IMG/VR virus record: IMGVR_UViG_3300017650_000224
Span: 1-52,874 of that record
From: a virus
Taxonomy: Duplodnaviria > Caudoviricetes
DNA: 52,874 bases
Direction: 5' to 3' (one strand)
Shown: one piece after another, positions 1,883 to 52,569 of the stretch
How positions within the stretch are numbered: the first letter of the stretch is position 1
Layout: each line of letters starts with the position of its first letter
The notes under the pieces: model-generated
Database searches by the model: none
Seen by the model: only the letters and a program-made list of their open reading frames with translations
Told to the model about the DNA's origin: nothing
Position numbers and translations under genes: made by a program

Positions 1883-2112
1883 GCTGCAACCCTCCTAAAC
1901 AGCAATGTCTGGAAGTTCGATTTGATGAGGTCGCGCCACACTACTTCACGTAGACGCTGACCAAAAACCCTCGCTGCTTCATAAGCCGATTCAGCCAGCA
2001 CAAGCGGGACAACCAACACAATCAGTGCCAACGGCAGCGCCGCCCACATCACTATCCCGCGCAGAAAGCGATTCTTGATGTTGTGAATGTTCAATTTTCG
2101 GACTTTGCTCAC
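1879..2112 (-). CDS. Hypothetical membrane protein
   Basis: 77 aa, one TM segment, coupled overlaps on both sides. Confidence 0.6.
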   Translation of the reverse strand: MSKVRKLNIHNIKNRFLRGIVMWAALPLALIVLVVPLVLAESAYEAARVFGQRLREVVWRDLIKSNFQTLLFRRVAA

Positions 2113-3392
2113 GCAGCCACCCTCCCCTCGCTCGCCGGTTCATTATCGTTCGCGGCCCGATAAGCCCCAGCGACCATTTCTGGTCGCAGGGTCGAGCGCC
2201 CTACCTCCCCGTATTTCTTCGAGTACGTAATGACCTTGGCCGACCGGCCAGACAGCCACCCGCCGCCACTCGCGTAGGCGTCCGGGGCGGCAAGCGTTTC
2301 GTGGCGCTCGATGTGCATCAGGGCTGTCTCGACCACCGCGTCGGAATGCAGATGCCCGCCATGGCCGTAATTGTACTGGCACCGCCCGAACATTTCGCGG
2401 AACTTCCCGGCGAATGTGCGGTCGAGGTCTTTCACGCCGCGCTTGTGCATGTGGTGGTAGTAAAGTCCGGTCTGCCCCCACTCGAACGCATAATAGAGGT
2501 CCGGGCTGCGATCGACGGTAATGCGCGGTTCGTTCTCGTAGAGCGTGGCCAGTAGCTCGCGGATCCATACCGACGAAGCCGGGTCGTGATTACCAGACGC
2601 CATAACGACGTGAACGCGCTCATGCTTGGCGAGCATCATATCGATGACGCGACGCAAGGCCCGGACCACGGCTCGCACGACTTTGTGCAAGCGGCTGTCG
2701 GCGTCGAGAACGTGCCTGTGCGCTGGCGTGACGGATTCCAGGCTGTCGTGGTGCATCAGGTCGCCGAGCTGCGCCAATAGGCCGGTGTGCGCGTCTGGGC
2801 TGGTGCGGATTGCCGCCGAGAACCAATCCAAGAAAAGCTGCTCGGCGATTTTCAGGTCGTAGTCCGAGCCGGTCTCCTCGCGGTGCGCCAGCATGCCGAA
2901 GTGGTTGTCGGTGACAGTGTACTGGTTAAGCAGGTCGTCGTTCCAGATCGTGTCGGCTGTGTGCGACGGCACGGGAGCGACGCGCGGCAGCGTTTCCTTT
3001 AGCGCCTCGACCGCTGCCTCAAGCGCTACGCGCTGGCTTTCCGCCCCTGCCCGCTCCATCACGTGCTGGGTAATAATGCGCCCTTCGGCGTCGATCAGGC
3101 TTGTCTTGCCTTTGATGGTCAGACCGTCAGTCGGCGCCCATTCTGGGCCAGCTTCTTTCCGCTGCTGGACGTACTGCCCGTTTGGTGTGTCGGTGATCTG
3201 GCGGATGCTGTAACCCGGCAACGTCTCCATGTTGCCCAACAACCCCCGCTCCGCCGCGCGGTTCAGGCGGTTCGTGAACGTCTGTCTCGGCAGGCCAAGC
3301 GTGCGGGCCGCTTCGGTTTTGTTCTCGCCGCAGGCGCGGTAGGCGATTGCGGCTTCGATGGCGTCTTCGTCGGAAAGGCGGGGGTTAGCCAT
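2109..3392 (-). CDS. Calcineurin-like metallophosphoesterase with N-terminal HTH
   Basis: TDNHFG, LGDLMH, SGNHD and GHLH motifs; Fis-like NKTEAARTLGLPRQT; ends AANDNEPASEGRVAA. Confidence 0.85.
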   Translation of the reverse strand: MANPRLSDEDAIEAAIAYRACGENKTEAARTLGLPRQTFTNRLNRAAERGLLGNMETLPGYSIRQITDTPNGQYVQQRKEAGPEWAPTDGLTIKGKTSLIDAEGRIITQHVMERAGAESQRVALEAAVEALKETLPRVAPVPSHTADTIWNDDLLNQYTVTDNHFGMLAHREETGSDYDLKIAEQLFLDWFSAAIRTSPDAHTGLLAQLGDLMHHDSLESVTPAHRHVLDADSRLHKVVRAVVRALRRVIDMMLAKHERVHVVMASGNHDPASSVWIRELLATLYENEPRITVDRSPDLYYAFEWGQTGLYYHHMHKRGVKDLDRTFAGKFREMFGRCQYNYGHGGHLHSDAVVETALMHIERHETLAAPDAYASGGGWLSGRSAKVITYSKKYGEVGRSTLRPEMVAGAYRAANDNEPASEGRVAA

Positions 3393-3672
3393 GGGCGGCA
3401 CCGGTGCGGATGGCGCGAGCGGCTGCCGAAAGGACAGGAATGTGATGTGGCCCAAATTCGCGGGCCTGCTCAATCTCCTCGTCTACAATATTAGCGCAAC
3501 GCTCACGCTCGGCAAGGATGGCGCGGGCCGCAATGGAAAGCATGGGCGCGTCATCAAACTCGCCCGACGCCACCCGAAGCAAATCAGCCGCGTCTTCGAT
3601 TCCGCTTATCGCAACAAACACGGCTCGCGCCTGCTGCAACACGTCCTGCGGGATATCCCCGGGCCGGCTCAT
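3385..3672 (-). CDS. Phage hypothetical protein
   Basis: 95 aa, coupled to neighbours, AILAERERCA motif common in phage ORFs. Confidence 0.65.
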   Translation of the reverse strand: MSRPGDIPQDVLQQARAVFVAISGIEDAADLLRVASGEFDDAPMLSIAARAILAERERCANIVDEEIEQAREFGPHHIPVLSAAARAIRTGAAHG

Positions 3673-3875
3673 GCCACCACCCCGCCCGCATTGCGGATTA
3701 GATAATCAACACCAGCCTGCCACATGTCGCGATAGCCATACTCGCCGTGCCCGTTACGCTTGCGCGCCTGCGCTGCGTGCTCAGCCATGGCGCTCGTGAC
3801 GCCTGCGGCTGGCTCGCGGATCATTTCCAGCACGCGCCGTACTGTCTGCGCGTCGGGCTTGCCCTCTGCCGTCAT
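3669..3875 (-). CDS. Phage hypothetical protein
   Basis: 68 aa with GAGGA SD. Confidence 0.6.
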   Translation of the reverse strand: MTAEGKPDAQTVRRVLEMIREPAAGVTSAMAEHAAQARKRNGHGEYGYRDMWQAGVDYLIRNAGGVVA

Positions 3876-3924
3876 CCTCTACTCCTCTTGGTACGTCCGC
3901 GCCTTTGGTGTCAGCGCGGCATGC

Positions 3925-3963
3925 AAAACAAAAAATCCCCCGCCGGCGGGAGCCAACGGGGGA
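3925..3963 (-). terminator. Intrinsic terminator
   Basis: TCCCCCGTTGGC-TCCC-GCCGGCGGGGGA followed by TTTTTTGTTTT on the minus strand. Confidence 0.8.
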
Positions 3964-4047
3964 CGTGCATTCAGATGTGCAAAATCATCCCACAGCTTGC
4001 GCTGCGACCGTGGCTGGCTATGGGAATCATTTGGAATTTATGGGAGG

Positions 4048-4076
4048 CTTATATAGGATTGCGCGGCGGATGTCAA
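4048..4076 (-). promoter_or_regulatory. Sigma70-family promoter
   Basis: TTGACA-N17-TATAAG on the minus strand. Confidence 0.65.
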
Positions 4077-4106
4077 GCGAAAACACAACATGTAGTGGGC
4101 GCCGCA

Positions 4107-4385
4107 CTACTGGCCACCACTTCTGCGCGCCGCCGGCTTATAGAGCGCATCGATCCGACCCGTCAGGTGGTCTAGCTTCCCGCTCACCCCGTTGATGGCC
4201 GCCATGATCTGTGCGGTCTGCTCGGTCATGCCAGCCTTCGTGACATATACCTCGGCAATATGAAGGCGGTGCGCCGCCAAATCATCCGTGTTGCGGCGGA
4301 TCATGCCTTCCACGCGCCACCAAACGCCCGACACTGCACCCAGCAATACCAGCACCGCCGATACGACTTCCCAGGTTATGGTCAT
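4107..4385 (-). CDS. Lysis-cassette membrane protein (N-terminal TM plus coiled coil)
   Basis: MTITWEVVSAVLVLLGAVSGVWW; lies after the endolysin/holin genes. Confidence 0.65.
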   Translation of the reverse strand: MTITWEVVSAVLVLLGAVSGVWWRVEGMIRRNTDDLAAHRLHIAEVYVTKAGMTEQTAQIMAAINGVSGKLDHLTGRIDALYKPAARRSGGQ

Positions 4386-4780
4386 GCGCGCCTCCCGCGC
4401 AACACCAGCGCCCCGGCGTCGGCAATAACGATCGCCGGTACCAGAACCAGCGCCATGTCGTGGATTGCGGGCGGCACAGCGACAACCACCAGCGACAGTC
4501 CGAACCATGGGTTGATAATCTGCACCAGGTAGATGGCGGCCCACCAAATCCCGAACGGCACGACGATAAGCCAGCGGCCTACCGACGTGGCGCTCAGCGC
4601 TCGTTGGGTCTCGGCCAACGCTATGTCGCGCGCCGCTTCAATGCGGCGAGCCGTCTGCTCGGCTTCCAGCCGCTCGGTGTCGTTCTGGGCGGCCAGCTGG
4701 GCCTCATAGGCCCGGAGCAGCGGCCCGGTGAACTTGTCGATCACCGGGCCCGCGAGCAGCTTCAGCAGCCACTGCATCAC
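4382..4780 (-). CDS. Putative holin-like membrane protein
   Basis: Two C-terminal TM helices; lysis cassette position. Confidence 0.6.
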   Translation of the reverse strand: MMQWLLKLLAGPVIDKFTGPLLRAYEAQLAAQNDTERLEAEQTARRIEAARDIALAETQRALSATSVGRWLIVVPFGIWWAAIYLVQIINPWFGLSLVVVAVPPAIHDMALVLVPAIVIADAGALVLRGRRA

Positions 4781-4977
4781 GTCGCCCAGCCCAGCCGCTT
4801 GGCCAGCCAGTACCAGCCTTCCGCCACCAGCGCGGCGGCAACACCAGCAAGGACTTGCAGCGCGGACAGAAGGTCGGGGTCATTAGCCAGCATGTCGCCC
4901 ATGCCGGGATCGAGCAGGCCGCGCGCGACCAGCAGGGCTGCGACGTAGCGCAGCCCGATACGAATAAATACGGTCAT
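4777..4977 (-). CDS. Putative holin (small 2-TM protein)
   Basis: 66 aa, MTVFIRIGLRY...AEGWYWLAKRLGWAT, directly downstream of the endolysin. Confidence 0.65.
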   Translation of the reverse strand: MTVFIRIGLRYVAALLVARGLLDPGMGDMLANDPDLLSALQVLAGVAAALVAEGWYWLAKRLGWAT

Positions 4978-4987
4978 TTGGATTTCC

Positions 4988-5743
4988 TTATTGGTCGGCT
5001 GGCGTGTCATCGGCAGGCAGTACAACCGGCTCATTGCTGCGCTGGCCGCGTATGCGGCGCAGCAGCCATGCGCCAGCTGCCGCCACAGCCAAGGCCACCA
5101 GCACAAGCACACCGGGCTTCACCGCCGACGGCGTGAGCGTCGGCGCTTGTGCCACGCTGTCAGGCAGGGCTGGTTGATCGACAGTCACCGGCGGGTTGCC
5201 CGCGAACGCGGCACGCAGTTCCTTGTCGACGGATATCCGGCGAGCAGAAGACCAGTCCGGCGTCATGTTTGCACGCACGCGGGTGTATTCGGTCATCGTG
5301 CCGTCGCCGGTCCACTTCCCGTCAAAGAACAGGTCACGCTCTTTTTGGCGGCGGACGGTGATTTCCTTGGGCGTCACCCAGTTCATGAACGCCTGCCGGG
5401 CTTGCGCAACTCGGCCGGCCTTCCAATGTTCCACCCACGCGGCCTGCTTGATCTTCCCGGTGTTCCAATGGAACGACAGGGCGGCAACATACTGGTGTTC
5501 GTTCAGCCGGTGGCCAGCGAACGCCTCGTCCACCTGCTTAGCATACGCCCGCAGCGCCCACACGAACACGTTCATGCAGTGTTGGAGCGGCGCGGGGTTG
5601 CCAACATAGCGCTCAACGCGGTGCCCGGTGGCGTTGGTCATACCCACGCACCAGGTCGGCACCCCGACGCTATCCTTATAGGTTTGGCGCACAAGCGCTT
5701 CGTGCGCGGCCACCTCAAGGGCGGCGCGGTAAGTGAGGGTCAT
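4988..5743 (-). CDS. Endolysin, GH24 lysozyme with C-terminal TM segment
   Basis: Catalytic E-x8-D-x5-T (HEALVRQTYKDSVGVPT) and RRQKERDLF; Pro-rich linker then VLVLVALAVAAAGAWLLRR. Confidence 0.85.
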   Translation of the reverse strand: MTLTYRAALEVAAHEALVRQTYKDSVGVPTWCVGMTNATGHRVERYVGNPAPLQHCMNVFVWALRAYAKQVDEAFAGHRLNEHQYVAALSFHWNTGKIKQAAWVEHWKAGRVAQARQAFMNWVTPKEITVRRQKERDLFFDGKWTGDGTMTEYTRVRANMTPDWSSARRISVDKELRAAFAGNPPVTVDQPALPDSVAQAPTLTPSAVKPGVLVLVALAVAAAGAWLLRRIRGQRSNEPVVLPADDTPADQ

Positions 5744-5819
5744 TGGAGGGAATCCTATTAGGGCCGGTCTAGACTTTGCCGGGCATTTTGCGTTTCATGC
5801 CCAGAAAGAGGGGGAGATC

Positions 5820-6401
5820 ATGAAAGCAATTGTGATTGCGGCACTGCTTGCCGCTTTGCCGACCGTTGCTGGGGCGCAGGAGGGCGACTTCTATGCCGGT
5901 GTGCTTCTGGGCGCGGGCCACGGCGAGCGGGAGGCCATCGGATCGGGCTGGACGGCCGAGACAAACGGCACGCTCATCGGCGGTATGGTTGGCTATACGG
6001 TAATGACCAGCCCGATCCTTTTGGGGATCGAGGCCGACTACCAACTGTCAAATATTGGCTCAGACAGGACATGGGGCCGCATCGACGGCCTCGACCACTT
6101 TGGCACCGTGCGCGCCCTAGCAGGCTTCCAGATCGAAGACTTCTCGATTTACGGCACGGCTGGCGTTGCCTTCGGAAGCGGCTATTTCCACCCGCGCGGC
6201 GCACCGCGAAAAGACGAGTTTATAGTCGGCACCGCGATCGGCATTGGGGCGAAATATCAAGTAACGGAAGCGCTCGGCCTCACGGCCGACGTCCTGCAAC
6301 TGAATTTCGGGGAGCCGAAATATTTCTCGATGCTGCTGGGGAACGCCGCTGTTCGCACAGAGGATCGCGTAGCAAGGGTCGGAGTGGTGTTTAGTTTTTA
6401 G
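5820..6401 (+). CDS. Outer-membrane beta-barrel protein, Omp25/RopB-like (moron)
   Basis: Signal peptide, FYAGVLLG, LGIEADYQ, IYGTAGVAFG, terminal Phe; opposite strand to the flanking phage operons. Confidence 0.85.
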   Translation: MKAIVIAALLAALPTVAGAQEGDFYAGVLLGAGHGEREAIGSGWTAETNGTLIGGMVGYTVMTSPILLGIEADYQLSNIGSDRTWGRIDGLDHFGTVRALAGFQIEDFSIYGTAGVAFGSGYFHPRGAPRKDEFIVGTAIGIGAKYQVTEALGLTADVLQLNFGEPKYFSMLLGNAAVRTEDRVARVGVVFSF

Positions 6402-6493
6402 GACCACCTTCGCCGCAAGCCGGGGCTAGCTGCCTTCTTTGCCGCTCCCCCATCAGGCCCTGGCTGACATCATGACCTCTACTAGTCAGATCG

Positions 6494-6832
6494 CTAATTC
6501 TCCCTGACGTCTTTCAGCCTCTGCATCGCATAAGCCATCAAGAACGTTCGAAGCACAGACGTTGCATTCGACTGGTCAGAACCGGCGAGCATCAGAACCT
6601 TGAAGACTAGGGCGTTGCGCGACATACCGATATCGGCAGCGGCGACTTCCAGTGCGCTCCAGAAAATGGCCTCTAAACGCACGCCCTTGCGCGAGCCTTT
6701 ATGGCTAAGTGCCCTAAATTCGGGGGCGGCTAGCGCTAACATGCGCTCACTGTCCAGCAGGCTTTCGGGCGCATCTCTCTCGTATGCTAAGCCGCCCGCC
6801 TCAGTTGTGTCCACGATTGCCACCCAGCTCAC
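6494..6832 (-). CDS. Ribbon-helix-helix DNA-binding protein (RHH_4-like)
   Basis: RKGVRLEAIFWSALE...SRNALV...NATSVLR pattern. Confidence 0.7.
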   Translation of the reverse strand: MSWVAIVDTTEAGGLAYERDAPESLLDSERMLALAAPEFRALSHKGSRKGVRLEAIFWSALEVAAADIGMSRNALVFKVLMLAGSDQSNATSVLRTFLMAYAMQRLKDVREN

Positions 6833-6883
6833 CCGTGGCCGACGCGCCTATCGCGCAATCAAGCCACCCCCTGCGGGACCCGT

Positions 6884-6905
6884 ATACTGCAATATGATAC
6901 AGTAT
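6884..6905. promoter_or_regulatory. Palindrome ATACTG-N10-CAGTAT, candidate operator
   Basis: Perfect inverted half-sites about 50 bp upstream of the RHH gene. Confidence 0.4.
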
Positions 6906-25151: not shown

Positions 25152-26384
25152 CTATGCCGCCGGTCTCGCCGGAGCCGGCGCCGCGGTGTTCTGGTTTGCG
25201 GCGACGCCGATCTGGTCGAGACGCTGCATGGTGCCGTTGACGATCGACTTATCCCCGCCAGCAGTCGGAGGCTTGCCTTCATAGGCCCGCGCTTCGTCGA
25301 CGTGGTAAATCCCGCTGTTGACCAACTTCGTGAGGAACTCTGCCCGCGCCGCGCTATCACCACGCAGCAGGTCTTCCATGTTGAACTTGACCTTGACCGT
25401 CTTGCGCTGCTCGGGCGTCAACAAATCGCGGTAGATGGCGTACTCGATACGCTTGAGCATTGGCCGCATGCAGGTCTTGGTGAACTGCAGAATGAGCTGC
25501 TCAATCCCGCTGCCCCATGCAGTGGCGTTATTGCCACCCACCATCACCGGCGGGATGCCATACACGCGGCAAATCTGCTCGACGATGTACTGACGGCTCT
25601 CAAGTAGCTGCGCGTCCTTCGGATTGATCGACATCGGGTAGGGCTTCATCCCGCCCTCAAGCGGCAATACCCCACCAGCCTTGTCGGCACCTGCGAACTG
25701 AGCGAACACATCGCCGATCTGCTTGCGCTGCTCGGGATTCAGAATCTGGTCGCTGGAGACGATCAGCGATGCCATGAGCCCGCTTTTCATCATTCGGCCA
25801 ACGGCCTTCTCGCCGGCCAGCGCGTTGCCAACCGTGTTCTTGGCGTACTCGATTGGCGAGAGCCCACGATCACACCCCGGTAGCGTTTTGCCCCGGACAT
25901 GAAACATGTTCTTTTCGCTAATGCGACGCTTCGTTCCGCCGTCCTCGGTAACCTCGTAAACACGCTCGTTGCGGCTGTTACGCTGCACGTCGACGGCAAG
26001 CGGCGCGTGCGGGTTGAGCGCCACAATCGCGCCGCTGCCGTTTCGCTTTATTTCCGCGAAAAAGTTTCCATCAAGACAGACGCACAGGGCGACCTGCGAC
26101 CAGAAATCCGGGGCCGTGTCGTCCATGTTCGGCAAGTAGTGCAGCAGTTCGAAGAGTGGGCTGTCCCGATCCTCTGTTACGCCATCAGCGCCGTACACGA
26201 CGCATGACAACGTTCCCACGGTATCAGAAATAAGCGTGGTGCAAGCCCACACCGCCTCCGATTGCAGCGCAGTTTCGTACGTGACTTTCTCGCCGCTCGT
26301 TGTCCCGAAGCCGAAAAAGCCCTTCCAAAAGGCGCCGTCGGTCAGCCGGATAACCCGACCAACCCACTTATCAATGAAGCCCAT
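25152..26384 (-). CDS. Portal protein, HK97 family
   Basis: GLSPI, DAQLLESR, ICRVYGIPP, LLRGD; ends AANQNTAAPAPARPAA. Confidence 0.95.
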   Translation of the reverse strand: MGFIDKWVGRVIRLTDGAFWKGFFGFGTTSGEKVTYETALQSEAVWACTTLISDTVGTLSCVVYGADGVTEDRDSPLFELLHYLPNMDDTAPDFWSQVALCVCLDGNFFAEIKRNGSGAIVALNPHAPLAVDVQRNSRNERVYEVTEDGGTKRRISEKNMFHVRGKTLPGCDRGLSPIEYAKNTVGNALAGEKAVGRMMKSGLMASLIVSSDQILNPEQRKQIGDVFAQFAGADKAGGVLPLEGGMKPYPMSINPKDAQLLESRQYIVEQICRVYGIPPVMVGGNNATAWGSGIEQLILQFTKTCMRPMLKRIEYAIYRDLLTPEQRKTVKVKFNMEDLLRGDSAARAEFLTKLVNSGIYHVDEARAYEGKPPTAGGDKSIVNGTMQRLDQIGVAANQNTAAPAPARPAA

Positions 26385-30733: not shown

Positions 30734-31660
30734 CTAAGCGACAAATTTCTTGATTGCGGCTGCAAGGTTGTCATTTGCCGCCATCAATGCCCGCTTGCCG
30801 CCCTTGCGCCGCGCGTATTCACGCTCCTGCCCAACCGCCTCGCCAATGTCGGCCAGCGTTCGCGCCGTCATGGCAGCATCCAGCGCCTTACGGTCCTTTT
30901 CACGCAGCGCCTTCCGGACTCTCCGCCACACACGGACGTTCTCCACCCGATGCGCGACGTCCTCCCACGCAACCGAGCCGGTCTCACCTTTGCGCCCCTT
31001 CTGCATACCGATGAAGCTTTCTGATACGCGGACCCCGCCGCAAGGCAGGCCTGGAGGGTAATGTTTGATGGCTGGCATAATAGGGGTGTTGGCGACTGCC
31101 TCGGCAATCAATGCTCGCGATTCAGCCGCCGTCAAATCCCTGTCCTCGGGCTCTCGGCGGCGCCTTCTCCCCTTAATGTGGCGAGCCGGTTCGGTGGCCA
31201 AGGCATCAGCAAAGAAGGCATTGCTGGCTTCCCGCTGTGCCTCCGAATAGCCGGCCCCGCCTGCTTGCGCCTGCAAGCGCTCCGCGGTGCGCAGCATTGC
31301 TCCTGCAGGCATTAGACGGTCGTATTCCTCAACTCGGCCTGCTGTATTCCGTCGATAAGCTTTTTCCGTCTGTGTGCCATCGCTGAAAGTCAGGCGGCCG
31401 ATTGCTGTGATCTGGCCCTTGTGGTTTCGTTGAACAGGTCCTCGCTTCACATGCCGCATGATTTCCTGGACGGATGGCGTAATCAGAAGGTTGCGCTCAA
31501 AGCCGTAGTCAGCGACCTCTTCGGGGTCGAAGTTGTCGTTTGCCGGAACTGTCGACCAATTGGACTGAACGGGCTCGGCATGTTCCGGGCGATTGCGATA
31601 GGCAAGCACGAATGAGAGTTGCTCGGCAAGCGAGCGACGAGAGCTTTTGGTGGGTGTCAT
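30734..31660 (-). CDS. Putative late-gene regulator (Q position, C-terminal HTH-like)
   Basis: Last gene before the late leader; TLADIGEAVG helix; two ANDN motifs. Confidence 0.55.
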   Translation of the reverse strand: MTPTKSSRRSLAEQLSFVLAYRNRPEHAEPVQSNWSTVPANDNFDPEEVADYGFERNLLITPSVQEIMRHVKRGPVQRNHKGQITAIGRLTFSDGTQTEKAYRRNTAGRVEEYDRLMPAGAMLRTAERLQAQAGGAGYSEAQREASNAFFADALATEPARHIKGRRRRREPEDRDLTAAESRALIAEAVANTPIMPAIKHYPPGLPCGGVRVSESFIGMQKGRKGETGSVAWEDVAHRVENVRVWRRVRKALREKDRKALDAAMTARTLADIGEAVGQEREYARRKGGKRALMAANDNLAAAIKKFVA

Positions 31661-35402: not shown

Positions 35403-36106
35403 GCTGCCTCGCGGTGTGTGGTGATGTCTGCCAATGCGTGGCCGCCCCACTGGTCGGCCATGGCTGCAGCAATCCCCGGAAAGAACCGACTTCTGCGGGC
35501 TGCGCGGTCCGGACCGGGACTGGCCTTATGAATTTCGTCTCGAGCTGTGGACCCATCCAGCGTGCCTGTCGGGGTGAGCTTCGGCAGGCCCTTCAGCCAA
35601 AAGCAGGTACGCTTTTTTACGTTGTCCGGGCCGTCCGGATCGGTCCCGAACTGCCAAGGCTGGACGCTTTGCGCGGCCGGCTCAAAGTTGCGAATGCGCG
35701 CCTTGGCGTGCTTGTGCATCACGGGGTTCTCGATGGCGATGCGAGGGATAGGCGCGTTCCAGCAATCGGAAAACAATGCGCAGCCCTCCTCGAGTTCGGC
35801 CCACATCTCCTCAAGCGTGCGTCCCGGTGGCGGCGCCGATAGCCAGCGCACCCCACTATTTGTGAGCCGCGTGCACGGAGGATGCATGACGGCCAGCAAA
35901 TCCCAGCCGTCGTTCAGGTGGTTGCGAATGTCGCCGACGATGTGCCGGTTGGTGCGGTCCTCGGCCGGCTTGATGTCGATAGACCACACGTCGTGTCCCA
36001 GCGCATCGAATGCCCGCCGTACGATGCCGGAGCATTCACAACCGATCAGAACGCGCAACGGCTCAAAGTCGATTGAGAGTTGATTGTCATTCGCCGCCCG
36101 CGTCAA
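35399..36106 (-). CDS. Small DNA cytosine-5 methyltransferase-like protein
   Basis: RVLIGCECSG, HPPCT, IENP, QPWQFG, KKRTCFW; TTGA-coupled start. Confidence 0.75.
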   Translation of the reverse strand: MTRAANDNQLSIDFEPLRVLIGCECSGIVRRAFDALGHDVWSIDIKPAEDRTNRHIVGDIRNHLNDGWDLLAVMHPPCTRLTNSGVRWLSAPPPGRTLEEMWAELEEGCALFSDCWNAPIPRIAIENPVMHKHAKARIRNFEPAAQSVQPWQFGTDPDGPDNVKKRTCFWLKGLPKLTPTGTLDGSTARDEIHKASPGPDRAARRSRFFPGIAAAMADQWGGHALADITTHREAA

Positions 36107-37344: not shown

Positions 37345-37914
37345 TCATGCCGCATCCCTCCCGAACAAATTATCATTCGCCGCAGCTGGAAATTTCCCGA
37401 CCTCATTCCCCCACGCCGCCCAACCGGGCCGGGCCTGCCGGGCGAACAGCTCCAGATACGGCCCAGCGACTAGCGCCTCGATGCGCTGATATTGCTCGTC
37501 GGGCTTGCGGGAATGTTCGCGGCGAGGAGCGCGAATTACGGAGCGCACGCCCTTGCTAAGCCGCCGAGGCTTGCCGCGTTTGAACAGGTGGCAGATTTCC
37601 ACTTCCTGCCGGGTCCAGTAGCCCATGCCCATGCGCCCCTTATCCCAGACAAAGGCGATTGACACAGGCTCGAAGCCCCAAGTTCGGCCGACGTCGATGG
37701 CAGCGGCCTGCAGGTGGGAAACAGTCCACATGAACAGCAGGCAATCTTCGGACGCGACGTCGCCGACTGGCAGCGCCTTGATGTCGGTCAGCGACATGAC
37801 ATCATAGGGCTGGACACCGCGCGCCGGGGCGAGGTTCTTCTTGCTGTAGGTCGTGAATCCCCACGGCGGGTCCGCGAGCACGGCACCAAATGGGCCGCTG
37901 GGTAGCGGGTTCAT
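37345..37914 (-). CDS. MT-A70 family adenine methyltransferase
   Basis: ADPPW, LFMW, GMGYWTR, HSRKP, LELFAR, WGNE; ends AANDNLFGRDAA. Confidence 0.9.
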   Translation of the reverse strand: MNPLPSGPFGAVLADPPWGFTTYSKKNLAPARGVQPYDVMSLTDIKALPVGDVASEDCLLFMWTVSHLQAAAIDVGRTWGFEPVSIAFVWDKGRMGMGYWTRQEVEICHLFKRGKPRRLSKGVRSVIRAPRREHSRKPDEQYQRIEALVAGPYLELFARQARPGWAAWGNEVGKFPAAANDNLFGRDAA

Positions 37915-38230: not shown

Positions 38231-38772
38231 GCCACCCGCACCGTCAGGCCAGGCTCGCCCGGCTTCATCTCGGCGCCGGCCACCTTCTTGCCTGCCTTCA
38301 GGCGCTCGCCGATAGCGGTCTTGTCGGGGCTTTTCACTACCCGCATCGCCCACTTCGGCAACCGGGTTTCGTCGGTGATCAGCACGGAGTCCCGCCCTTT
38401 TGACACGGACAACGTGCCTTCCGGCAACTGCACGCGCTGCTGCCCCGCCGCGGTCATCAGCCGGAACATCAAAGCCCGCATGGCGTCCTGCTTACGGCTG
38501 AACCGCTCCTGCCGCTGCCGCAGTTCACCTATACGGTCAGCAATCGCGGCGCTGAAGTGCTTGGCGTCTTGGGCGCCACCCAAGAGCCGGGCCAACAAGT
38601 CGTTGAACCCCATGCCTTCGAACGTGTCGGCGGCGAGGTCAGAATCGTCGGCTAGTTCCGGGAAGTCACGCTGAACCGCCTCAAGGTGCAGGGTGAACTC
38701 CTGCACGTCGCGGGCGAGGAATGCGTTGTCATTGGCTGGTGCCGTTGGTGTGGTGTTTGTTTTTGCCGTCAT
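38227..38772 (-). CDS. Siphovirus Gp157-family protein
   Basis: DTFEG, coiled coil, PDKTAIGERLKAGKKVAGAE. Confidence 0.85.
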   Translation of the reverse strand: MTAKTNTTPTAPANDNAFLARDVQEFTLHLEAVQRDFPELADDSDLAADTFEGMGFNDLLARLLGGAQDAKHFSAAIADRIGELRQRQERFSRKQDAMRALMFRLMTAAGQQRVQLPEGTLSVSKGRDSVLITDETRLPKWAMRVVKSPDKTAIGERLKAGKKVAGAEMKPGEPGLTVRVA

Positions 38773-38818
38773 GTTTTTCTCCTCTTGGTGGCGCATAGTT
38801 GGTGGTTATGCGGTTTGT

Positions 38819-39125: not shown

Positions 39126-40862
39126 TCAGAACGGGATGAAGTCCTCCCCTGCGACCAGCGCGGAAAGCCGCTCGCGCTCGTTGTCGTTTGCTGGCTCGCG
39201 TATTGCGTCATTGCTTGGCGACGCGCCCGCGCGCCAATACTCAACGTTCCAAAACTTCCCTTTTTTTACGACGCTGATCTCCGTGGTGATTACGAGCTCG
39301 TCGGCCCGGTCCAGAAACTCGTCGACCGTCAACGGAAATGGGAGATCCCCGCCGTGAGTGCGCCAAAACCGGTCAGACTTTTGCTTGAAAAAACCGGCAC
39401 CCTCCGGGCCGACGAAATCCTTCTGAACGGTTAGCCCAAGCTGGTAGTCAATGCGCACACACGGGCCTGCCTTTCCGGCGTGCTTTCGGAACGTCCGCCC
39501 GGTCACTCCGCGCCATACGGGCTCGGTGGTGGAGAGGATTGGGGCGTCGGAGGCGCGGGCGGCATGCTTAGGCTCCTCGCTTGGCGGAAATTCGTAACCG
39601 CAGCAGGTGCACACACGCACCGATGCATGCAGGATTTCCTCGCAGGTCGGGCAGATTTTTACAGGCGCGTCCCCGTCACCCTTGCCGGGCTTCTTAGGCT
39701 CGACCATATCCACTGGGCCGTGCTTCTCGACCAGCCCAGCGAAATCGAGCACAAGGCAGTTTGGCTTTGGGCCAGCCGCAATAGCCTCCAGTCGCTGCTC
39801 GGTGGTTTCCAGCGGCATTCCCGGCGCATACAGTACGCGCACCCCGCGCCCAGCCATTTGCAAATACAAAGCGGCTGACAAAGTGGGCCTCATGAATGCG
39901 ATTAGGTCGACACCCTTATGATTGAAGCCCGTCGTCAACACTGAATTGTTGGTGATCGCCCGCAGTCGATAAGCCTTGAAATCCTCGATGATGCGCCTGC
40001 GTTCCTCGGGCGGCGTTGTTCCGGTTATCGTCTCGCACGACACACCCCGCTTGCGGATTTCGTCGCGGATATGCAGCGCGTGGTCGACGCCTGCCCCGAA
40101 GATAAGCCAGGACTTTCGGTCGGTGCCCTTAGCGACGATTTCGTCCACCGCCGCTGCCGTAACCTCCTCGCGGTCCACTGCGCGCTGCATGGCGCCCTGC
40201 TTGTAGTCGCCTCCCAGCCGCCCCACGCCGGCCATGTCAAAGCCCGTCGCAGTTGGCTTGCTGGACAGCGGGGCAAGATAGCCGTCGCGCACGCCGGGGC
40301 CGATGCCGTATTCGTATACAACCTTATCGAACAGCCGGTCTTCGCCTTCGTCTAGCCTGCCGCTATCCAAGCGGAATGGCGTCGCCGTAAGCCCCAACAG
40401 CTTCATGTCCGGGTTTTGTTCGCGCAGCCCTTTGATAAACTGGCCGTACATGGTCTCTGTCTTGGCCGGAATTAGGTGCGCCTCGTCCACCAACATGACG
40501 TCGAACGCGCCATTGGCCGTAAGGGCCCCGACCTTGTCCCAAACAGTCTGGATACCGCAGAACAAGACCTGTGCGTGACGATCACGCCGCCCCAGGCCCG
40601 CGGAATAGATACCCGCCGGCGCGAACGGCCACATGCCGAGCAACTCCAGATAGCTCTGCTCGATCAGTTCGGCCACATGCGTGACGACAAGAACACGCAT
40701 GTCCGGCCAGCCGGAAAGCAGCCGCTTGATGATCTCAGATAGCACCGCGCTCTTGCCAAGCCCCGTGGCCAGGTCCACGAGCGGGTTCCCGGGCTCGGAC
40801 GCCCAGTAGTCGAACACCGCCTGGACTGCTTCTTCCTGATAGGGGCGGAGAACGAGAGTCAC
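39126..40862 (-). CDS. SF2 DEAH helicase with Zn finger (RadD/YejH-like)
   Basis: LRPYQ, TGLGKS, DEAH, TATP, QMAGRG, CPTC...CTCC. Confidence 0.92.
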   Translation of the reverse strand: MTLVLRPYQEEAVQAVFDYWASEPGNPLVDLATGLGKSAVLSEIIKRLLSGWPDMRVLVVTHVAELIEQSYLELLGMWPFAPAGIYSAGLGRRDRHAQVLFCGIQTVWDKVGALTANGAFDVMLVDEAHLIPAKTETMYGQFIKGLREQNPDMKLLGLTATPFRLDSGRLDEGEDRLFDKVVYEYGIGPGVRDGYLAPLSSKPTATGFDMAGVGRLGGDYKQGAMQRAVDREEVTAAAVDEIVAKGTDRKSWLIFGAGVDHALHIRDEIRKRGVSCETITGTTPPEERRRIIEDFKAYRLRAITNNSVLTTGFNHKGVDLIAFMRPTLSAALYLQMAGRGVRVLYAPGMPLETTEQRLEAIAAGPKPNCLVLDFAGLVEKHGPVDMVEPKKPGKGDGDAPVKICPTCEEILHASVRVCTCCGYEFPPSEEPKHAARASDAPILSTTEPVWRGVTGRTFRKHAGKAGPCVRIDYQLGLTVQKDFVGPEGAGFFKQKSDRFWRTHGGDLPFPLTVDEFLDRADELVITTEISVVKKGKFWNVEYWRAGASPSNDAIREPANDNERERLSALVAGEDFIPF

Positions 40863-44599: not shown

Positions 44600-45658
44600 C
44601 TACACCCTCATCGGCATCAGGACGCCGCACCAGTTATCGTTCGCGCCGACAATCCTCGCCGGGCTGCTGCTATCGCTGATTTCAAACGTCACCTTGCCGC
44701 CCTCGACGGAGCGCAGCATTTCGGTGAGATAGCTGGCGTTGTAGCCAATATCGAAAGGCTCACCGGTGTAGTCGGCAGCCAGTTCGTCACTCGCCTGCCC
44801 GCCCTCACCGTTGACAGTAAACGTCACGCCGCCCGGAGCGACTTCGAGCTTCACGGCCTTGCCTCCCCGCTCGCTGGCGAACACACCGACCCGCTCGACG
44901 GCAGCCGACATAAGGGCACGGTCCAGTGTCACCGGCCGGTCGTTGTTCTTGGGGATGACACGCTCGTAATCGGGGAACGTACCTTCGACCAGCTTGGATA
45001 CAATCACCGTATCGCCAGCGGTGAACCGGATGCGGCCCGGCCCGATATCGACCTCAATTTCGCCCGACGGGATCATGCCGACCGTCTTGCGCGGAATGAT
45101 GATGCCCTCGGGCAGGTCAAGGTCAGGCCCATACACTGCCGCCAGCCGGTGTCCGTCGGTCGCCACCGCGCGCAGCCGGCCGTGGACAGAGTGCAGGTAC
45201 ACGCCGTTGAGATAGAAGCGCGTCTCTTCGGTCGACATGGCAAAAGCGACCGGCGCGAGCAGCGCGGCCAAGTCTATGGCTAGGCCCACCGGGTACGCCG
45301 GCTGGGTCATGGTCGGGAAGTCTTCAACCGGCAGCGTGGCAACCTTGAACCGGCTGCGGCCATGGGAAACGGTCAGAATGCCACCGTCCAGCGCCAGCGA
45401 GATTTCGGCGCCATTGGGCATCCGCTTGGCGATATCGAGCAGCGTGCGCGCTGGTGCGGTTGTGGTGTCGAGTGCGCCGTCGGCTGGAACCGAAGTGGTG
45501 ATTTCAACGTCTGTATCTGTGGCGCGGACCGTCAGTTTGCTGGCGTCAGCGCTCAAAAGAACGTTCGCCAAAATCGGAACGGTGTTGCGTGTTTCCACCG
45601 CTTTGGTCGCCTGCGTGAGCGCAGCGACTAGGTGGGCCTTCTCTACTCTGAGTGCCAT
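44600..45658 (-). CDS. dnaN: DNA polymerase III beta sliding clamp
   Basis: PILANVL, ATD, TRFYLNG, VATDGHRL, GTFPDYERVIP, ends LMPMRV. Confidence 0.93.
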   Translation of the reverse strand: MALRVEKAHLVAALTQATKAVETRNTVPILANVLLSADASKLTVRATDTDVEITTSVPADGALDTTTAPARTLLDIAKRMPNGAEISLALDGGILTVSHGRSRFKVATLPVEDFPTMTQPAYPVGLAIDLAALLAPVAFAMSTEETRFYLNGVYLHSVHGRLRAVATDGHRLAAVYGPDLDLPEGIIIPRKTVGMIPSGEIEVDIGPGRIRFTAGDTVIVSKLVEGTFPDYERVIPKNNDRPVTLDRALMSAAVERVGVFASERGGKAVKLEVAPGGVTFTVNGEGGQASDELAADYTGEPFDIGYNASYLTEMLRSVEGGKVTFEISDSSSPARIVGANDNWCGVLMPMRV

Positions 45659-45733: not shown

Positions 45734-46291
45734 TTACCCCCAAGGGCGCTTTTTGGTCCCACCTGCCTGCGCTTGCGCGGCAGGCCGGGCGTTGTCGTTG
45801 GCCGCTGCTCGCTGGTTATCGTTCGCCGGGCGTGCGGGCTGGTTGGCGTCGATTGCGGGGACGGGCACGTTGCCTTGGTCCGGGAAGTAGTAGGCCTTGA
45901 TCTCGGCACGGGCGGGGTACTGGCCGTCCTTCGACGGCTTGCCCAAGCCGATTTTCACCGTGAAGCCCTTGAACAGAAGTTCATCGGTGTCCTCGACGCC
46001 GTCGAGTTCAAGGGCGCGGCAGAGGCTCGCAAATTGGCGCTGTCCAATCTCTTGGGCAGTGGGATTCGCGTTTTCCAGGTTGTAATTGTTGAAGATCAGC
46101 CGACCCTCATATTCCTCGGGCTCAAGCACTTTGTTGACGGTCTTGAGGATCGTCCCGTTGCCTGCCTTCGTGGGGGCGACGTCCGCTTCGGTGACTTCGA
46201 GGCGATAGATGCCGTTGGGCAGTTCCTCGTAGTCGGGCCGCTGCTCGGTGTCATGTTGAGTCGCGTCGAAACGCTGACCAAGTCTGGCCAT
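45734..46291 (-). CDS. DUF669 single-stranded DNA-binding protein
   Basis: LPNGIY, GRLIFNNYNL, acidic/flexible tail ending KKRPW; near the Sak4-like gene. Confidence 0.8.
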   Translation of the reverse strand: MARLGQRFDATQHDTEQRPDYEELPNGIYRLEVTEADVAPTKAGNGTILKTVNKVLEPEEYEGRLIFNNYNLENANPTAQEIGQRQFASLCRALELDGVEDTDELLFKGFTVKIGLGKPSKDGQYPARAEIKAYYFPDQGNVPVPAIDANQPARPANDNQRAAANDNARPAAQAQAGGTKKRPWG

Positions 46292-46340: not shown

Positions 46341-47168
46341 TCACGCCGCCTCATCATCGGCTTTGTCGTTGTCGTTCGCTGCGCCGAAGGCCAGTGAGGG
46401 CTGGAACTCCCCGGTGGTTGTCGCGCCCTTGGTCATGTTTTCGGCCTCCCATAGAGGCTGGAGGTTCGAGAGCGACCATGCACGCTTGAAGTCCAAGTCA
46501 TCTGGACAGTTATAATTGTGGGCCGACAAAGGTACTTTGTGGTCGATATGCCAGCCACCGCGCCCGTAGTTCTCCCAAGACATCCCAGGCTGAAATAGCT
46601 TTTCCAGATGGGCCATTAGTTCATCGACGCTGTATCCAAGAATATCGAATGTCCGCCGTGATGCTTTTGCGCCTTTCGTAATCCCGCGGTGCACGCCAAC
46701 AGAAATGGAGTTCTCAAGTCGACCCTTTGGAGTAGAGCGCCTACGCTCATCCCGCCTTCTGCCAGACTCCCTAACGCGCTCTGGGTCTTCCTCCATTGCG
46801 CGCCGGTACTTTGCTTTACCCCTCTCCCGCTCGGATTCGGCATTCGCTTCTCGCCATGCCTTGTTGTATGCGCGGTGAAAGTCAGGGTCTTCGGCATATC
46901 GCGCCCGCGATCTTTCGCGGTCCCTCTCCCTTTCTTTCTCAATGTTTTTCAGGCGATACAGGCGCCTCGTCTCTCGAACCTCATCCGGCTTTTCTTCGCG
47001 ACGTTTCTTGGCTCTCATTCGAAAGCAAGCATGACACCCGCCCTGATGTGTGTTGCGCTTGTCGATGTGTCCGTTCTTGCAGGGCCTTCCTGTGAAATAG
47101 TGCTTGGACCCCTGCGCCTTGGCTTCCGCGCGTGATCGAGGAAGCCGCTGGCCGTTTTCGGCTGCCAC
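46341..47168 (-). CDS. HNH endonuclease with N-terminal Zn ribbon
   Basis: LEKLFQPGMSWENYG..WHIDHKVP...NLQPLW..EN; ends AANDNDKADDEAA. Confidence 0.85.
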   Translation of the reverse strand: MAAENGQRLPRSRAEAKAQGSKHYFTGRPCKNGHIDKRNTHQGGCHACFRMRAKKRREEKPDEVRETRRLYRLKNIEKERERDRERSRARYAEDPDFHRAYNKAWREANAESERERGKAKYRRAMEEDPERVRESGRRRDERRRSTPKGRLENSISVGVHRGITKGAKASRRTFDILGYSVDELMAHLEKLFQPGMSWENYGRGGWHIDHKVPLSAHNYNCPDDLDFKRAWSLSNLQPLWEAENMTKGATTTGEFQPSLAFGAANDNDKADDEAA

Positions 47169-48663: not shown

Positions 48664-49689
48664 TCAGGCGGCGGTGAGGGCCGACAGAGGAACGCCGTGG
48701 CTGGGGTTACGCAGGCCAGGAATGTTGACGTTGGCGTGCGTGCCATGAGGGTGAATGCCGGTCACCTTCACGCGCAGAGTCGCGAACTGCCCGGGGCGGA
48801 TGGTGGAATCGACCAGCAACAATTCGTCGTCTCGCCACCATTCGAAGCCTACATGGCCGGAGCAGCTGCGAAGTGACATGACACCCTTAGCGTTGCGGGT
48901 TGCGACGACGAACTCCCTGTCGTCTTCCTTCACCCGCACTCGATCACCCACTTTGAACTTCGGCTCTGCAGGCGTTGCTGTTGCGGGACCAAGCGCAACG
49001 GGGTCTTCATCCTCGGACGGCCATTCGGCGACGAGGTCGTATCCCGCCGTCATTTCGTTTCGATTGGGGCTGCCCACCGGCCAAAAACTGCCGTCCTCGT
49101 GCCACGCCTCAACGAAGTCGTGGTTATTGCCGTCAGAGCGCCAAAAGAAAGCCCCGCCACCACGTCCACGACGCACAGGCCCGACCTTCCGCCCGTCGCG
49201 CGTGCGGTAATAACGCCCGACTTGGATTTGCAGCGCGTCTGCCCCTTGCGCTTGCGCGGCAGTTGGCAGGGGTTCAAAGTTTTCCAGTAGTCCACGGAGC
49301 GACCAGTTGTGCTCCCGGTTGCCTGCCTCGTCGGTCAAGTGGAACATGCGCTCGCCGCCGCCGCCGACAATTTCGTACTCACCGTCACGCCGGTAGTAAT
49401 GGCTATCCTTGCCCTTCCACCGAACCCGATCCCCAACCTTGAACTTGACCTCGGTGCTCTGCTGGCCACCCTGCTCCTGCTCGGCACGTGCAGGGGTGTC
49501 GTCGTTGGCGGCGTCAAGAACAGTCAGGCTGCGCTTGGCCCACCAGACCTTAACACCGCTCAACCACGTACTGTCGCCGATGCATCCGGCGTACCGAACC
49601 TGCCGCTCGCCCTTTCTCTTCCCGACAATCGTTCCGACGTCACCGTCTTCGTCGCGCACACGTGCGCCAATACCGTATTTACCGGCCAT
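48664..49689 (-). CDS. Multi-SH3/KOW-like repeat protein
   Basis: Repeated KFKVGDRVR-type units and GRYYRTRDGRKV. Confidence 0.7.
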   Translation of the reverse strand: MAGKYGIGARVRDEDGDVGTIVGKRKGERQVRYAGCIGDSTWLSGVKVWWAKRSLTVLDAANDDTPARAEQEQGGQQSTEVKFKVGDRVRWKGKDSHYYRRDGEYEIVGGGGERMFHLTDEAGNREHNWSLRGLLENFEPLPTAAQAQGADALQIQVGRYYRTRDGRKVGPVRRGRGGGAFFWRSDGNNHDFVEAWHEDGSFWPVGSPNRNEMTAGYDLVAEWPSEDEDPVALGPATATPAEPKFKVGDRVRVKEDDREFVVATRNAKGVMSLRSCSGHVGFEWWRDDELLLVDSTIRPGQFATLRVKVTGIHPHGTHANVNIPGLRNPSHGVPLSALTAA

Positions 49690-51406: not shown

Positions 51407-51425
51407 CCGTCTGGACGCAAGCAAC

Positions 51426-51476
51426 TTGCGATAATCGCATTTAATAGTTGACTTTCGCATAAGCCTGCCGCATTCT
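51426..51476 (+). promoter_or_regulatory. Rightward early promoter with operators
   Basis: TTGCG-N5-CGCAT at 51426; TTGACT-N17-CATTCT at 51448-51476. Confidence 0.7.
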
Positions 51477-51528
51477 CTCCTCATGCAACGGGATTACCAC
51501 CCCCGTAGCGCTACCAGAGGAGAAAATC

Positions 51529-51810
51529 ATGACGAACGGCATTACCAGCACCACGATTCCCGTCAGAAGACCTGATGGCGCGAGCTGCGTGTCTGGGCTT
51601 GTCCTGGCTCGCGCCTTCGCAGGGGATAACGAACGGACAATCGAGGAGGCGCGGCCGGACCCATTCGGCCGCGTATTTGCATCGAGCGTCGAGCCGATGT
51701 GCCGCCCCGACCACAAGGCCAAGAAGCACGGCCGCCCGAAGCCGAAGAAGTGGGCCCGCAGGGCTGACCGGCGGGCAGCGATGCTGGAGCTGGTGGGAGA
51801 CGGGGAATGA
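51529..51810 (+). CDS. Basic hypothetical protein
   Basis: GAGGAG SD; first ORF of the rightward operon. Confidence 0.65.
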   Translation: MTNGITSTTIPVRRPDGASCVSGLVLARAFAGDNERTIEEARPDPFGRVFASSVEPMCRPDHKAKKHGRPKPKKWARRADRRAAMLELVGDGE

Positions 51811-52079
51811 GTGTGTTCAACTGGACGATGGTGCCGCAGGTTGGTGACTGGTGGGGGGACAAGCCAGCCGAGATTGTTGGCCCGAACGGCAGGACGATAG
51901 CCACGTTGGTAATGACCGAGAACCCGGCCGACGCCAACGCAGTGGCTGCAAAAATGGCCGCCGCTCCTGAAATGCTGGAAGCGCTAAGGCAGGTCAAAGC
52001 ACAGTGCCAAGAGTTCTTGCCACTTGGGTTGGACCAGCAGATTTGCGACGCGCTCAACAAAGCCGAGGGCCGGTTATGA
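51807..52079 (+). CDS. Phage hypothetical protein
   Basis: ANA..MAAAPEMLEAL motif. Confidence 0.75.
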   Translation: MSVFNWTMVPQVGDWWGDKPAEIVGPNGRTIATLVMTENPADANAVAAKMAAAPEMLEALRQVKAQCQEFLPLGLDQQICDALNKAEGRL

Positions 52080-52249
52080 CCACGCTCGCCCTGCGGTCCG
52101 GCCACTGGCGCCCCACCCTATCCGAACACGACCGACAATTCCTGCGCGCCCTGCCATGGGGCTTGCTCGCCGCAGCTGCAACGCTGGCGCTCTGCTGGCC
52201 GCTGCGCTTTGACGGCGAAATGATTTGGGTGGCTTTGGCTGCCCTCTAA
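52076..52249 (+). CDS. Small membrane protein
   Basis: 57 aa, ATGA-coupled, hydrophobic. Confidence 0.55.
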   Translation: MTTLALRSGHWRPTLSEHDRQFLRALPWGLLAAAATLALCWPLRFDGEMIWVALAAL

Positions 52250-52341
52250 CCGCCCCGCTTGCCGCGCCCTAGCGCGCAATCGGGCAGCCTGTACCACCAC
52301 CCGGCCTCACCAGCCACCACCTACCACGAGGAGAAATTCAA

Positions 52342-52569
52342 ATGGCTATTTCGCATTTGCCGACCGCCTTCACCTACCCGGTTATCACCGCCGACCGCGC
52401 CCTTGCCGCAGGCATTTCTGCCGGGTCACTCGCCGCAACCGCCGATTGGAACCAACGGCGCGCCAAGGGTCCGGACAAGCAGCGCCGACTGGCTCAGGCC
52501 GCAGAACTGCGGCGGGTTGCTGCGCAACTGGCCGCAAATGACAATGGTGAGCGGAGGGTGGCGGCGTGA
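52342..52569 (+). CDS. Small protein ending in an ssrA-like tag
   Basis: GAGGAG SD; ends AANDNGERRVAA. Confidence 0.75.
   Translation: MAISHLPTAFTYPVITADRALAAGISAGSLAATADWNQRRAKGPDKQRRLAQAAELRRVAAQLAANDNGERRVAA

Follow-up and report, generated by a model that had tools for sequence, protein, structure and literature searches.

The window considered here is the whole of the IMG/VR provirus record IMGVR_UViG_3300017650_000224, a stretch of 52,874 bases with a CheckV completeness of 82%, a guanine-cytosine (GC) content of about 0.61 and most of its genes on the minus strand. It combines a structural block with an early block that encodes regulators (an S24 repressor, an Xis-like regulator and an ECF-like sigma factor), replication and recombination proteins (a Sak4-like annealase, a DUF669 SSB-like protein, a DnaN clamp, a superfamily-2 helicase, a primase-polymerase and Gp157), and nucleases, modification enzymes and others (an endonuclease VII-like protein, VRR-NUC, an exonuclease-like protein, MT-A70, a second DNA methylase and a deoxynucleoside monophosphate (dNMP) kinase). 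Among isolated phages, Sinorhizobium phage NV1.1.1 is the closest, with a portal identity of 61.8%; a megablast search with 20 kb of window sequence found no match in the phage collection, that is, no near-identical record. Many of the early proteins share the tetrapeptide ANDN, which in five of them opens a C-terminal tail that resembles the ssrA tag encoded by the transfer-messenger RNA (tmRNA) of alpha-proteobacteria. As judged from sequence, these tails probably mimic the host tag and would thereby expose their carriers to tethering by the adaptor SspB and to degradation by ClpXP.

The ANDN motif and its carriers

ANDN ranks first among the tetrapeptides in the six-frame translation of the window: composition predicts 0.18 copies, and 14 are observed. 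At the DNA level, the pattern GCNAAYGAYAAY is likewise matched 14 times, whereas 100 dinucleotide-preserving shuffles yield 0.15 matches on average and 2 at most. All 14 copies stand in the coding frame of open reading frames (ORFs) that are read as genes, none in another frame or on the other strand, and their codons vary at the four wobble positions only (GCA/GCG/GCC, AAT/AAC, GAC/GAT and AAT/AAC), which indicates that selection acts on the peptide and not on the DNA. A motif at the DNA or RNA level was ruled out on the same grounds. Boundary sequences for modular recombination were rejected as well, since a stretch of twelve degenerate bases would be too short and its flanks are not related to one another, and so was a run of Asn and Asp codons (queuosine-modified tRNAs) acting on translation, since the order A-N-D-N is strict, its Ala is fixed and other combinations of NAY codons are not enriched. 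The copies are confined to 838-2153 and 30767-52628, and none lies at 2154-30766, where the structural genes sit; this distribution and the replication and regulatory carriers rule out a capsid-targeting signal.

The motif occurs in two settings (Table 1). In the first, [A]ANDN is placed 11-14 residues ahead of the stop codon (exonuclease-like, 308-amino-acid (aa), MT-A70, endonuclease VII-like and 75-aa proteins), and the tail falls outside the Pfam domain wherever such a domain is detected, which is the case for MT-A70. In the second, [P/A]ANDN is found near the N-terminus or in a linker (Xis-like protein, Gp157, second methylase, dNMP kinase, 308-aa protein, helicase tail and DUF669 protein). 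The carriers are early DNA-metabolism and regulatory proteins, among them nucleases, two methylases and the Xis-like regulator, in agreement with the initial annotation of this DNA, which had ascribed the signals to nucleases, methylases and a regulator.

Table 1. Motif-bearing sites and other features of the window, in order of position
Protein or feature	ORF or gene	Site	Strand	Remarks
dNMP kinase-like protein	295-1047	838..849	-	PANDN directly upstream of P-loop; same position in NV1.1.1
Exonuclease-like protein (phrog_704)	2109-3473	2112..2156	-	C-terminal tail AANDNEPASEGRVAA; last codons overlap GTG start of ORF 1879-2112, GGGAGG upstream of that start
Portal (siphovirus-type structural block)	25152-26384	25155..25202	-	Tail AANQNTAAPAPARPAA, variant ANQN; doubtful member
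Terminase-like protein (siphovirus-type structural block)	26392-27951			Named by position alone
tRNA-Met (CAT) and tRNA-Tyr (GTA), adjacent		29792-29943	-	Between packaging and early blocks
308-aa protein (phrog_36072, function unknown)	30734-31660	30737..30781	-	C-terminal tail AANDNLAAAIKKFVA
308-aa protein, second ANDN	30734-31660	31532..31543	-	PANDN, residues 40-43; kept in NV1.1.1 at residue 37
VRR-NUC	32488-33057	residue 54	-	Variant ANEN; ends KVA
Primase-polymerase	33195-35450		-	
Second DNA methyltransferase (C5-MTase)		36083..36094	-	N-terminal ANDN; C-terminus REAA at 35402
MT-A70 adenine methyltransferase	37345-37914	37348..37383	-	C-terminal tail AANDNLFGRDAA, past Pfam domain (residues 9-171 of 189) and containing NLF; ATGA overlap with next ORF
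Gp157	38227-38796	38725..38736	-	PANDN, ANDN at residues 21-24, ahead of Pfam domain (55-181); ends RVA
Helicase		39129..39194	-	C-terminal extension PANDNERERLSALVAGEDFIPF; ANDN and SSB-tip-like IPF end, no AA
ECF-like sigma factor (Sigma70 r2/r4)	41677-42159		-	C-terminus RRAA
DnaN sliding clamp	44600-45658	44633..44644	-	ANDN within last Pfam domain (domain 3, residues 233-351 of 352)
DUF669 SSB-like protein	45734-46291	45791..45826	-	Tandem ANDN-x4-ANDN in disordered linker; ends RPWG
Endonuclease VII-like protein	46341-47168	46344..46382	-	C-terminal tail AANDNDKADDEAA; GTGA overlap
341-aa protein	48664-49689	about residue 60	-	Variant ANDD; ends TAA
75-aa protein (no family)	52342-52569	52531..52566	+	C-terminal tail AANDNGERRVAA; GTGA overlap with ORF 52566-52874
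Xis/regulator-like protein	52566-52874	52617..52628	+	PANDN, ANDN at residues 18-21

Six C-termini had been read as complete ssrA-like tags in the initial annotation, and the translations of the six ORFs match them exactly. Five of the tails hold as AANDN tails. The sixth, that of the portal, starts with AANQN; this variant and the lack of any ANxN in the portal tail of NV1.1.1, which has the final AA alone in common with the window portal, make it a doubtful member. Alignments of portal relatives end at residue 393, and the portal tail probably lies outside the system. With the portal counted, five tails end in AA and one in VA; without it, four AA ends and one VA end are left. The window tails extend over 11-15 residues from ANDN to the stop, and the residues preceding the final AA are V, P, D, E and V. 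In four of the six, the tail finishes in a GTGA or ATGA overlap of stop and start, with a GGAGG-like sequence just upstream. The ribosome-binding site of the next gene thus lies inside the tail and partly dictates residues such as E-R-R-V, E-G-R-V and G-R-D.

The initial annotation further described proteins that split the signal between their two ends, and its four examples were confirmed: C5-MTase, Gp157, VRR-NUC and the 341-aa protein each combine ANDN or a variant of it with a C-terminus in REAA, RVA, KVA or TAA. The C5-MTase probably starts at TTG 36112, which yields MTRAANDN with AANDN at residues 4-8, and the long ORF 35399-36478 is then mis-started. This TTG (in 36094-36112, minus strand) overlaps the TGA of ORF 36103-36489 and has GGGAGAGGGAG upstream. 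The ANDN of the DnaN clamp is probably due to chance or non-functional because it lies inside the last folded domain; region 12669-13724 of NV1.1.1 contains no ANDN.

C-termini that resemble the SSB C-terminal tip are seen in two window proteins, the helicase (EDFIPF; 39126-39146, minus strand) and the DUF6511 protein encoded by ORF 36103-36489 (REREIPF; 36103-36123, minus strand).

Host tags and related phages

The tmRNA tags decoded with ARAGORN from genomes that harbour related prophages are ANDNNAKGYALAA in Rhizobium, ANDNKAQGYALAA in Falsochrobactrum, ANDNYAEARLAA in Mesorhizobium and ANDNRAPVALAA in Paracoccus, and all four start with ANDN. In a class-wide even sample, 19 of 23 decoded tags start with ANDN and all 23 end in AA, with middles that differ in sequence and length. 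An alanine carried by the tmRNA itself precedes the encoded tag, so the mature tag starts with AANDN. The phage tails keep the two parts that the host tags conserve, the ANDN start and the AA end. The spacing is likewise close, as the distance from ANDN to the stop is 12-13 residues in the host tags (10-15 in ANDN-type tags overall) versus a mode of 13 in the phage clade.

SspB is encoded by all five host genomes tested and is not encoded in the window, where ARAGORN found two tRNA genes only and no tmRNA gene. Solved structures of SspB are available from Agrobacterium (2NYS) and Caulobacter (2QAS and 2QAZ). The sspB and tmRNA genes are 0.15-3.2 kb apart in three Rhizobiales genomes. A complex prediction for residues 1-125 of Rhizobium SspB (4-row alignment) with residues 1-50 of Gp157 reached a score of 0.17 (mark 0.32) and is not used as evidence either way.

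ORFs of host chromosomes contain no ANDN in the 76,794 residues sampled. A strict tail pattern was matched in 2 of 301 genomes of the class, one match being a known prophage and the other being broken by an in-frame stop. Three of 91 genomes of the family matched it, each with two matches on one contig and one strand, 11-35 kb apart, and control matches were 0.

ANDN also leads the tetrapeptides of NV1.1.1 (20 copies versus 0.24 expected), where it takes homologous positions in the exonuclease-like, DUF669, helicase (doubled), dNMP kinase and 308-aa proteins. The tail of its exonuclease-like homologue is AANDNVPVEQKRVA, the endonuclease VII-like homologue ends in AANDNTETVTKKAA, the homologue of the 308-aa protein has AANDNF 21 residues before its end, and the Dmt methylase carries ANDN at both ends. 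Among 22 IMG/VR loci anchored on the helicase, ANDN is the top tetrapeptide in nine; a further two hold 2 copies each, and the remaining 11, whose helicases are more distant, hold 0-1. Helicase-anchored loci were also taken from genomes, one genome per species (n = 80). Seven of these contain 3-9 copies, and ANDN is the top tetrapeptide in six of them, the exception being locus L030 (3 copies), which is led by another tetrapeptide. The seven are prophages of Falsochrobactrum, two Ochrobactrum, Rhizobium sp., Pseudaminobacter, Mesorhizobium and Pseudohoeflea.

The motif-rich set holds 138 distinct ANDN instances. Sixty-three of them lie within 25 residues of the stop, at a modal distance of 13, and 32 of these C-terminal instances end in AA, 5 in VA and 10 in PF, the last being helicases. 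Among 141 contexts, ANDN is preceded by A in 64 and by P in 53. The tails are labile among orthologues; relatives of the 377-aa protein, for example, end in DGAANDNEPGSTKA, DGATNAA or DGATQ. The C-terminal extension of the helicase is present in all 16 clade members listed, of which 15 carry one or two [x]NDN (none in L030) and 13 end in PF. Helicases outside the clade miss the whole extension and show no NDN in the 30 tails listed. In the DUF669 linkers of relatives, ANSN, ANNN or ANQN is found where others carry ANDN.

A loose scan of IMG/VR DNA for NDN, 6-11 codons and AA-TGA, in which Ala ahead of NDN was not demanded, matched at least 120 loci. Among the matches listed, 70 loci contain ANDN, mostly as in-frame [AP]ANDN...AA tails, and 34 of the 40 loci with at least two ANDN, again among the matches listed, have at least one protein in common with the window. 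One CheckV-complete phage record of 44 kb (G398) contains five ANDN, four of them 8-15 residues from the stop and three of those ending in AA, with 0 matches in a reversed-pattern control. G398 encodes no DnaN and no clade-specific genes, and its similarity to the window is limited to three ORFs at 26-33% identity, two of which encode HNH-type proteins. Since the motif thus occurs without the clade-specific genes, a host factor is a likelier common reader than a phage-encoded factor. Together, these observations suggest that ANDN is a short linear motif of early proteins, placed in their unstructured tails and linkers, in a lineage of temperate phages whose hosts are Rhizobiaceae, Brucellaceae and Phyllobacteriaceae, an interpretation that we consider probable from the comparison of sequences. 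Its restriction to one phage lineage may reflect a lineage-specific strategy. A covariation with another host tag was looked for and found no support as a general rule, as neither ANDE, ANDD nor any other tetrapeptide is enriched in betaproteobacterial helicase relatives or in low-GC viral contigs (contig hosts not identified).

The C-terminal Ala-Ala was counted in ORFs of at least 50 codons that are supported by GC content at third codon positions (GC3) and de-duplicated by their last 30 residues, with one crude caller throughout. In motif-rich loci, 139 of 543 ORFs (25.6%) have an AA end. The share falls to 122 of 1279 (9.5%) among motif-poor relatives and to 11 of 235 (4.7%) for host DNA, against about 1.3-1.6% predicted from the alanine content. 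Within the motif-rich loci, AA ends are found on 27 of 53 ORFs with a C-terminal ANDN, on 20 of 45 with ANDN elsewhere and on 92 of 445 with none. The odds ratios versus ORFs without ANDN are 4.0 (p = 9e-6) for C-terminal copies and 3.1 (p = 7e-4) for copies elsewhere, p-values that are optimistic because orthologues are not independent. As AA is coupled to ANDN even when the two stand at opposite ends of the protein, the idea of a split signal is supported. PF is the second commonest C-terminal dipeptide in the motif-rich loci (25 of 543).

Proposed mimicry of the ssrA tag and competing explanations

In the proposed mechanism, the host adaptor SspB of the alpha type, which is reported to read the N-terminal part of the tag, would bind ANDN and tether the phage protein to ClpX, whose pore would engage a free Ala-Ala or Val-Ala C-terminus. 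An adaptor-dependent turnover of the tailed proteins by ClpXP would result. A complete tag mimic would consist of AANDN, 5-10 residues and AA or VA at the C-terminus. An N-terminal or linker ANDN would serve as a tether of its own, with the degron located at the opposite end, and the ANDN proteins that lack an AA end (helicase and SSB-like protein) would bind SspB and escape degradation. A more speculative extension, which may hold for the lineage as a whole, is a "degron code" in which ANDN is a portable SspB tether, used at either terminus or in linkers and sometimes doubled, and Ala-Ala a ClpX handle. The two would be separable modules, combined with clamp-binding and SSB-tip motifs in such a way that engagement at the fork masks the degron and idle proteins are destroyed.

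Several observations weigh against the mimicry of the tag. Leu is found at position -3 in none of 32 AA-ended clade tails, and the host tags mostly end in LAA, VAA or IAA. The tails may therefore be weak ClpX degrons that rely on the adaptor tether, like engineered SspB-dependent tags. The proposal of constitutive degrons in the initial annotation is backed at the sequence level by the ANDN starts and AA ends, the tag-like spacing and the coupling of ANDN with AA, but the word constitutive is doubtful. Pro occupies the second position behind ANDN in 57 of the 141 instances; in the four host tags decoded with ARAGORN this position is Ala. ANDN is also conserved, and often doubled, in the helicase and the SSB-like protein, neither of which ends in AA, and a pure degron reading leaves this unexplained. 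The middles of the tails partly encode the Shine-Dalgarno sequence of the next gene, and the locus counts include orthologues and hence are not independent. The distribution among phages is a further difficulty. Seventy-three of the 80 helicase-relative loci contain 0-1 ANDN and no alternative enriched tetrapeptide, and most of them are in alphaproteobacteria. They come from Methylobacterium, Rhodobacterales, Acetobacteraceae, Sphingomonadales, a metagenome-assembled genome (MAG) of Rhizobium, Limnohabitans, and other beta- and gammaproteobacterial and unclassified MAGs. Paracoccus, which is among these ANDN-poor hosts, was shown to have the same ANDN tag and SspB. The expectation that homologues from phages of other hosts would lack the tails was borne out in so far as homologues outside the clade are tail-less, but the 73 loci with at most one ANDN are themselves mostly alphaproteobacterial.

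The gene context of the AA ends also counts against the tag mimicry in part and leads to the first of three alternatives, in which the pattern would be a nucleic-acid signal at gene junctions or a by-product of gene packing (Shine-Dalgarno sequences and ATGA/GTGA overlaps). AA ends are about twice as common where the stop overlaps the next start, with 78 of 195 versus 61 of 348 ORFs in motif-rich loci and 65 of 454 versus 57 of 825 in motif-poor loci. This association implies that gene packing or translational coupling contributes part of the conserved end. The motifs cluster near gene ends, and the four window tails that overlap the next start carry its GGAGG-like sequence. Such an origin is nevertheless very improbable. 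The AA excess of the clade is present in both the overlap and the non-overlap class, the latter at 17.5% in motif-rich loci versus the 4.7% of host DNA, and an overlap demands merely a last codon ending in A or G and not Ala-Ala. ANDN itself lies 33-45 nt from the next start, occurs inside N-terminal regions as well, and has the in-frame, wobble-only codon variation described above.

In the second alternative, ANDN would be a docking motif for another hub, such as the phage DnaN clamp or another replisome organiser, that gathers proteins at the fork, and the likeness to ssrA would be coincidental. The carriers are mainly DNA-metabolism proteins, and the linkers that hold the motif, often in tandem, also hold other docking motifs; the helicases have SSB-tip-like IPF ends. 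DnaN is found in 12 of 14 motif-rich versus 1 of 50 other loci, the primase-polymerase in 12 versus 1, and several unknown proteins are distributed likewise. A clamp-binding-like [DS][LM]F is seen in 12 of 76 NDN tails versus 4 of 467 others, mostly in one orthologue family. Such a hub is unlikely all the same, because it leaves the coupling to AA, the tag-like spacing and the identity with the start of the host tag unexplained. The beta-clamp-binding consensus is QL[SD]LF, and ANDN has no hydrophobic residue, unlike clamp-binding motifs. Non-replisome carriers exist (Xis-like regulator and 75-aa protein), and the complete phage G398 has ANDN...AA tails in the absence of DnaN and of clade-specific genes. 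The orthologue family that holds most of the [DS][LM]F tails has 260-280 aa and is encoded 3-5 kb downstream of the helicase. In the 12 NDN tails, such motifs (PQLSLF, QADLF and PDLFG) stand between ANDN and the final AA, for example in the loci L004 (7184-8398), L008 (14275-15105) and L012 (14532-15308).

The third alternative accepts the binding of SspB but assigns it to titration or scaffolding, with a putatively abundant SSB-like protein and helicase, which carry two copies and no degron, dampening the ssrA/ClpXP proteolysis of the host. It would account for the ANDN without AA, often doubled, in the helicase and DUF669 tails of the clade and for the 12-20 motif-bearing proteins per genome. 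It is quite unlikely as the general explanation, since 47 of 98 motif-bearing proteins end in AA, which a decoy does not need. Moreover, excerpts of PMC8138137 describe SspB as dispensable for the degradation of ssrA-tagged proteins in general, so that a titration would have a limited effect. A decoy or scaffold role of the degron-less copies on the helicase and the DUF669 protein is possible and compatible with SspB binding.

Known systems and further features of the window

The tails resemble the tag of the alpha-proteobacterial tmRNA/SspB/ClpXP system in their (A)ANDN start, Ala-Ala end, similar length and variable middle. Unlike that tag, they are encoded in the genes before ordinary stop codons and are not added by trans-translation, and ANDN is also used alone at N-termini and in linkers. 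According to excerpts of PMC9393093, a Caulobacter protein with an appended ssrA tag is very unstable, and deletion of sspB slows its loss. For C-degrons of ClpXP, excerpts of PMC10862746 name the terminal Ala-Ala as the critical feature, with upstream residues tuning the strength. SspB tethers ssrA-tagged proteins and N-RseA to ClpXP (bioRxiv 10.1101/2020.06.12.148478, in part), the C-terminus of N-RseA in Escherichia coli being ...GVAA (PMC8138137, in part), and a modified ssrA tag that depends on SspB serves as a tool (PMC3064785, in part). N-RseA and the engineered SspB-dependent tags share with the phage proteins the combination of an adaptor-binding peptide with a weak or separate terminal degron. 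They are single host proteins or laboratory constructs, whereas the phage arrangement seems to have evolved repeatedly across an early proteome. Replisome docking motifs (beta-clamp and SSB tip) are likewise short motifs in disordered termini of many DNA-metabolism proteins, but ANDN, a polar motif, fits neither consensus and goes together with a C-terminal AA.

The nearest phage precedent is mycobacteriophage BPs, in which, according to excerpts of PMC4557955, the repressor gp33 (in its 136-residue form) and the integrase carry C-terminal ssrA-like tags that mark them for proteolysis and determine how often lysogeny occurs. As in the window, the tags are genetically encoded in phage proteins. 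In BPs, two proteins are tagged and the repressor tag is removed by integration within the gene, whereas here at least a dozen early proteins per genome are concerned, and the adaptor-binding half of the tag is also copied and used separately. With tags on many genes, an integration-dependent removal of the BPs type cannot apply to most of them. What would be new compared with the two BPs proteins is the mimicry of the adaptor-binding half, putatively on 12-20 early proteins per genome. In the openly accessible literature searched, neither ANDN motifs nor a full two-part tag mimicry in phage proteins is described.

The mimicry would be common to NV1.1.1, to the prophages in the rhizobial genera named above and to numerous IMG/VR contigs; the sampled stretches of host chromosomes lack it. 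If it is real, it would represent a natural case of modular adaptor-dependent degrons, a design known from synthetic biology, and a simple sequence rule would predict unstable phage proteins in rhizobia and brucellae. SspB of the host would be implicated in the life cycle of the phage and in its choice of lysogeny, and the tails would offer ready, tunable degradation tags for alpha-proteobacteria. The degron code, if it applies, would set a host-adaptor-dependent timing for at least a dozen early proteins and perhaps the clearance of nucleases and methylases on entry into lysogeny. NV1.1.1, as an isolated phage with a genetically tractable host, allows these points to be tested directly.

Two minor features of the window are added here. 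The tRNA-Met gene is also present at the equivalent place in NV1.1.1. Positions 3500-9800 have a lower GC content (0.56-0.57) and few confident ORFs by GC3, and this segment may be cargo or the provirus end.

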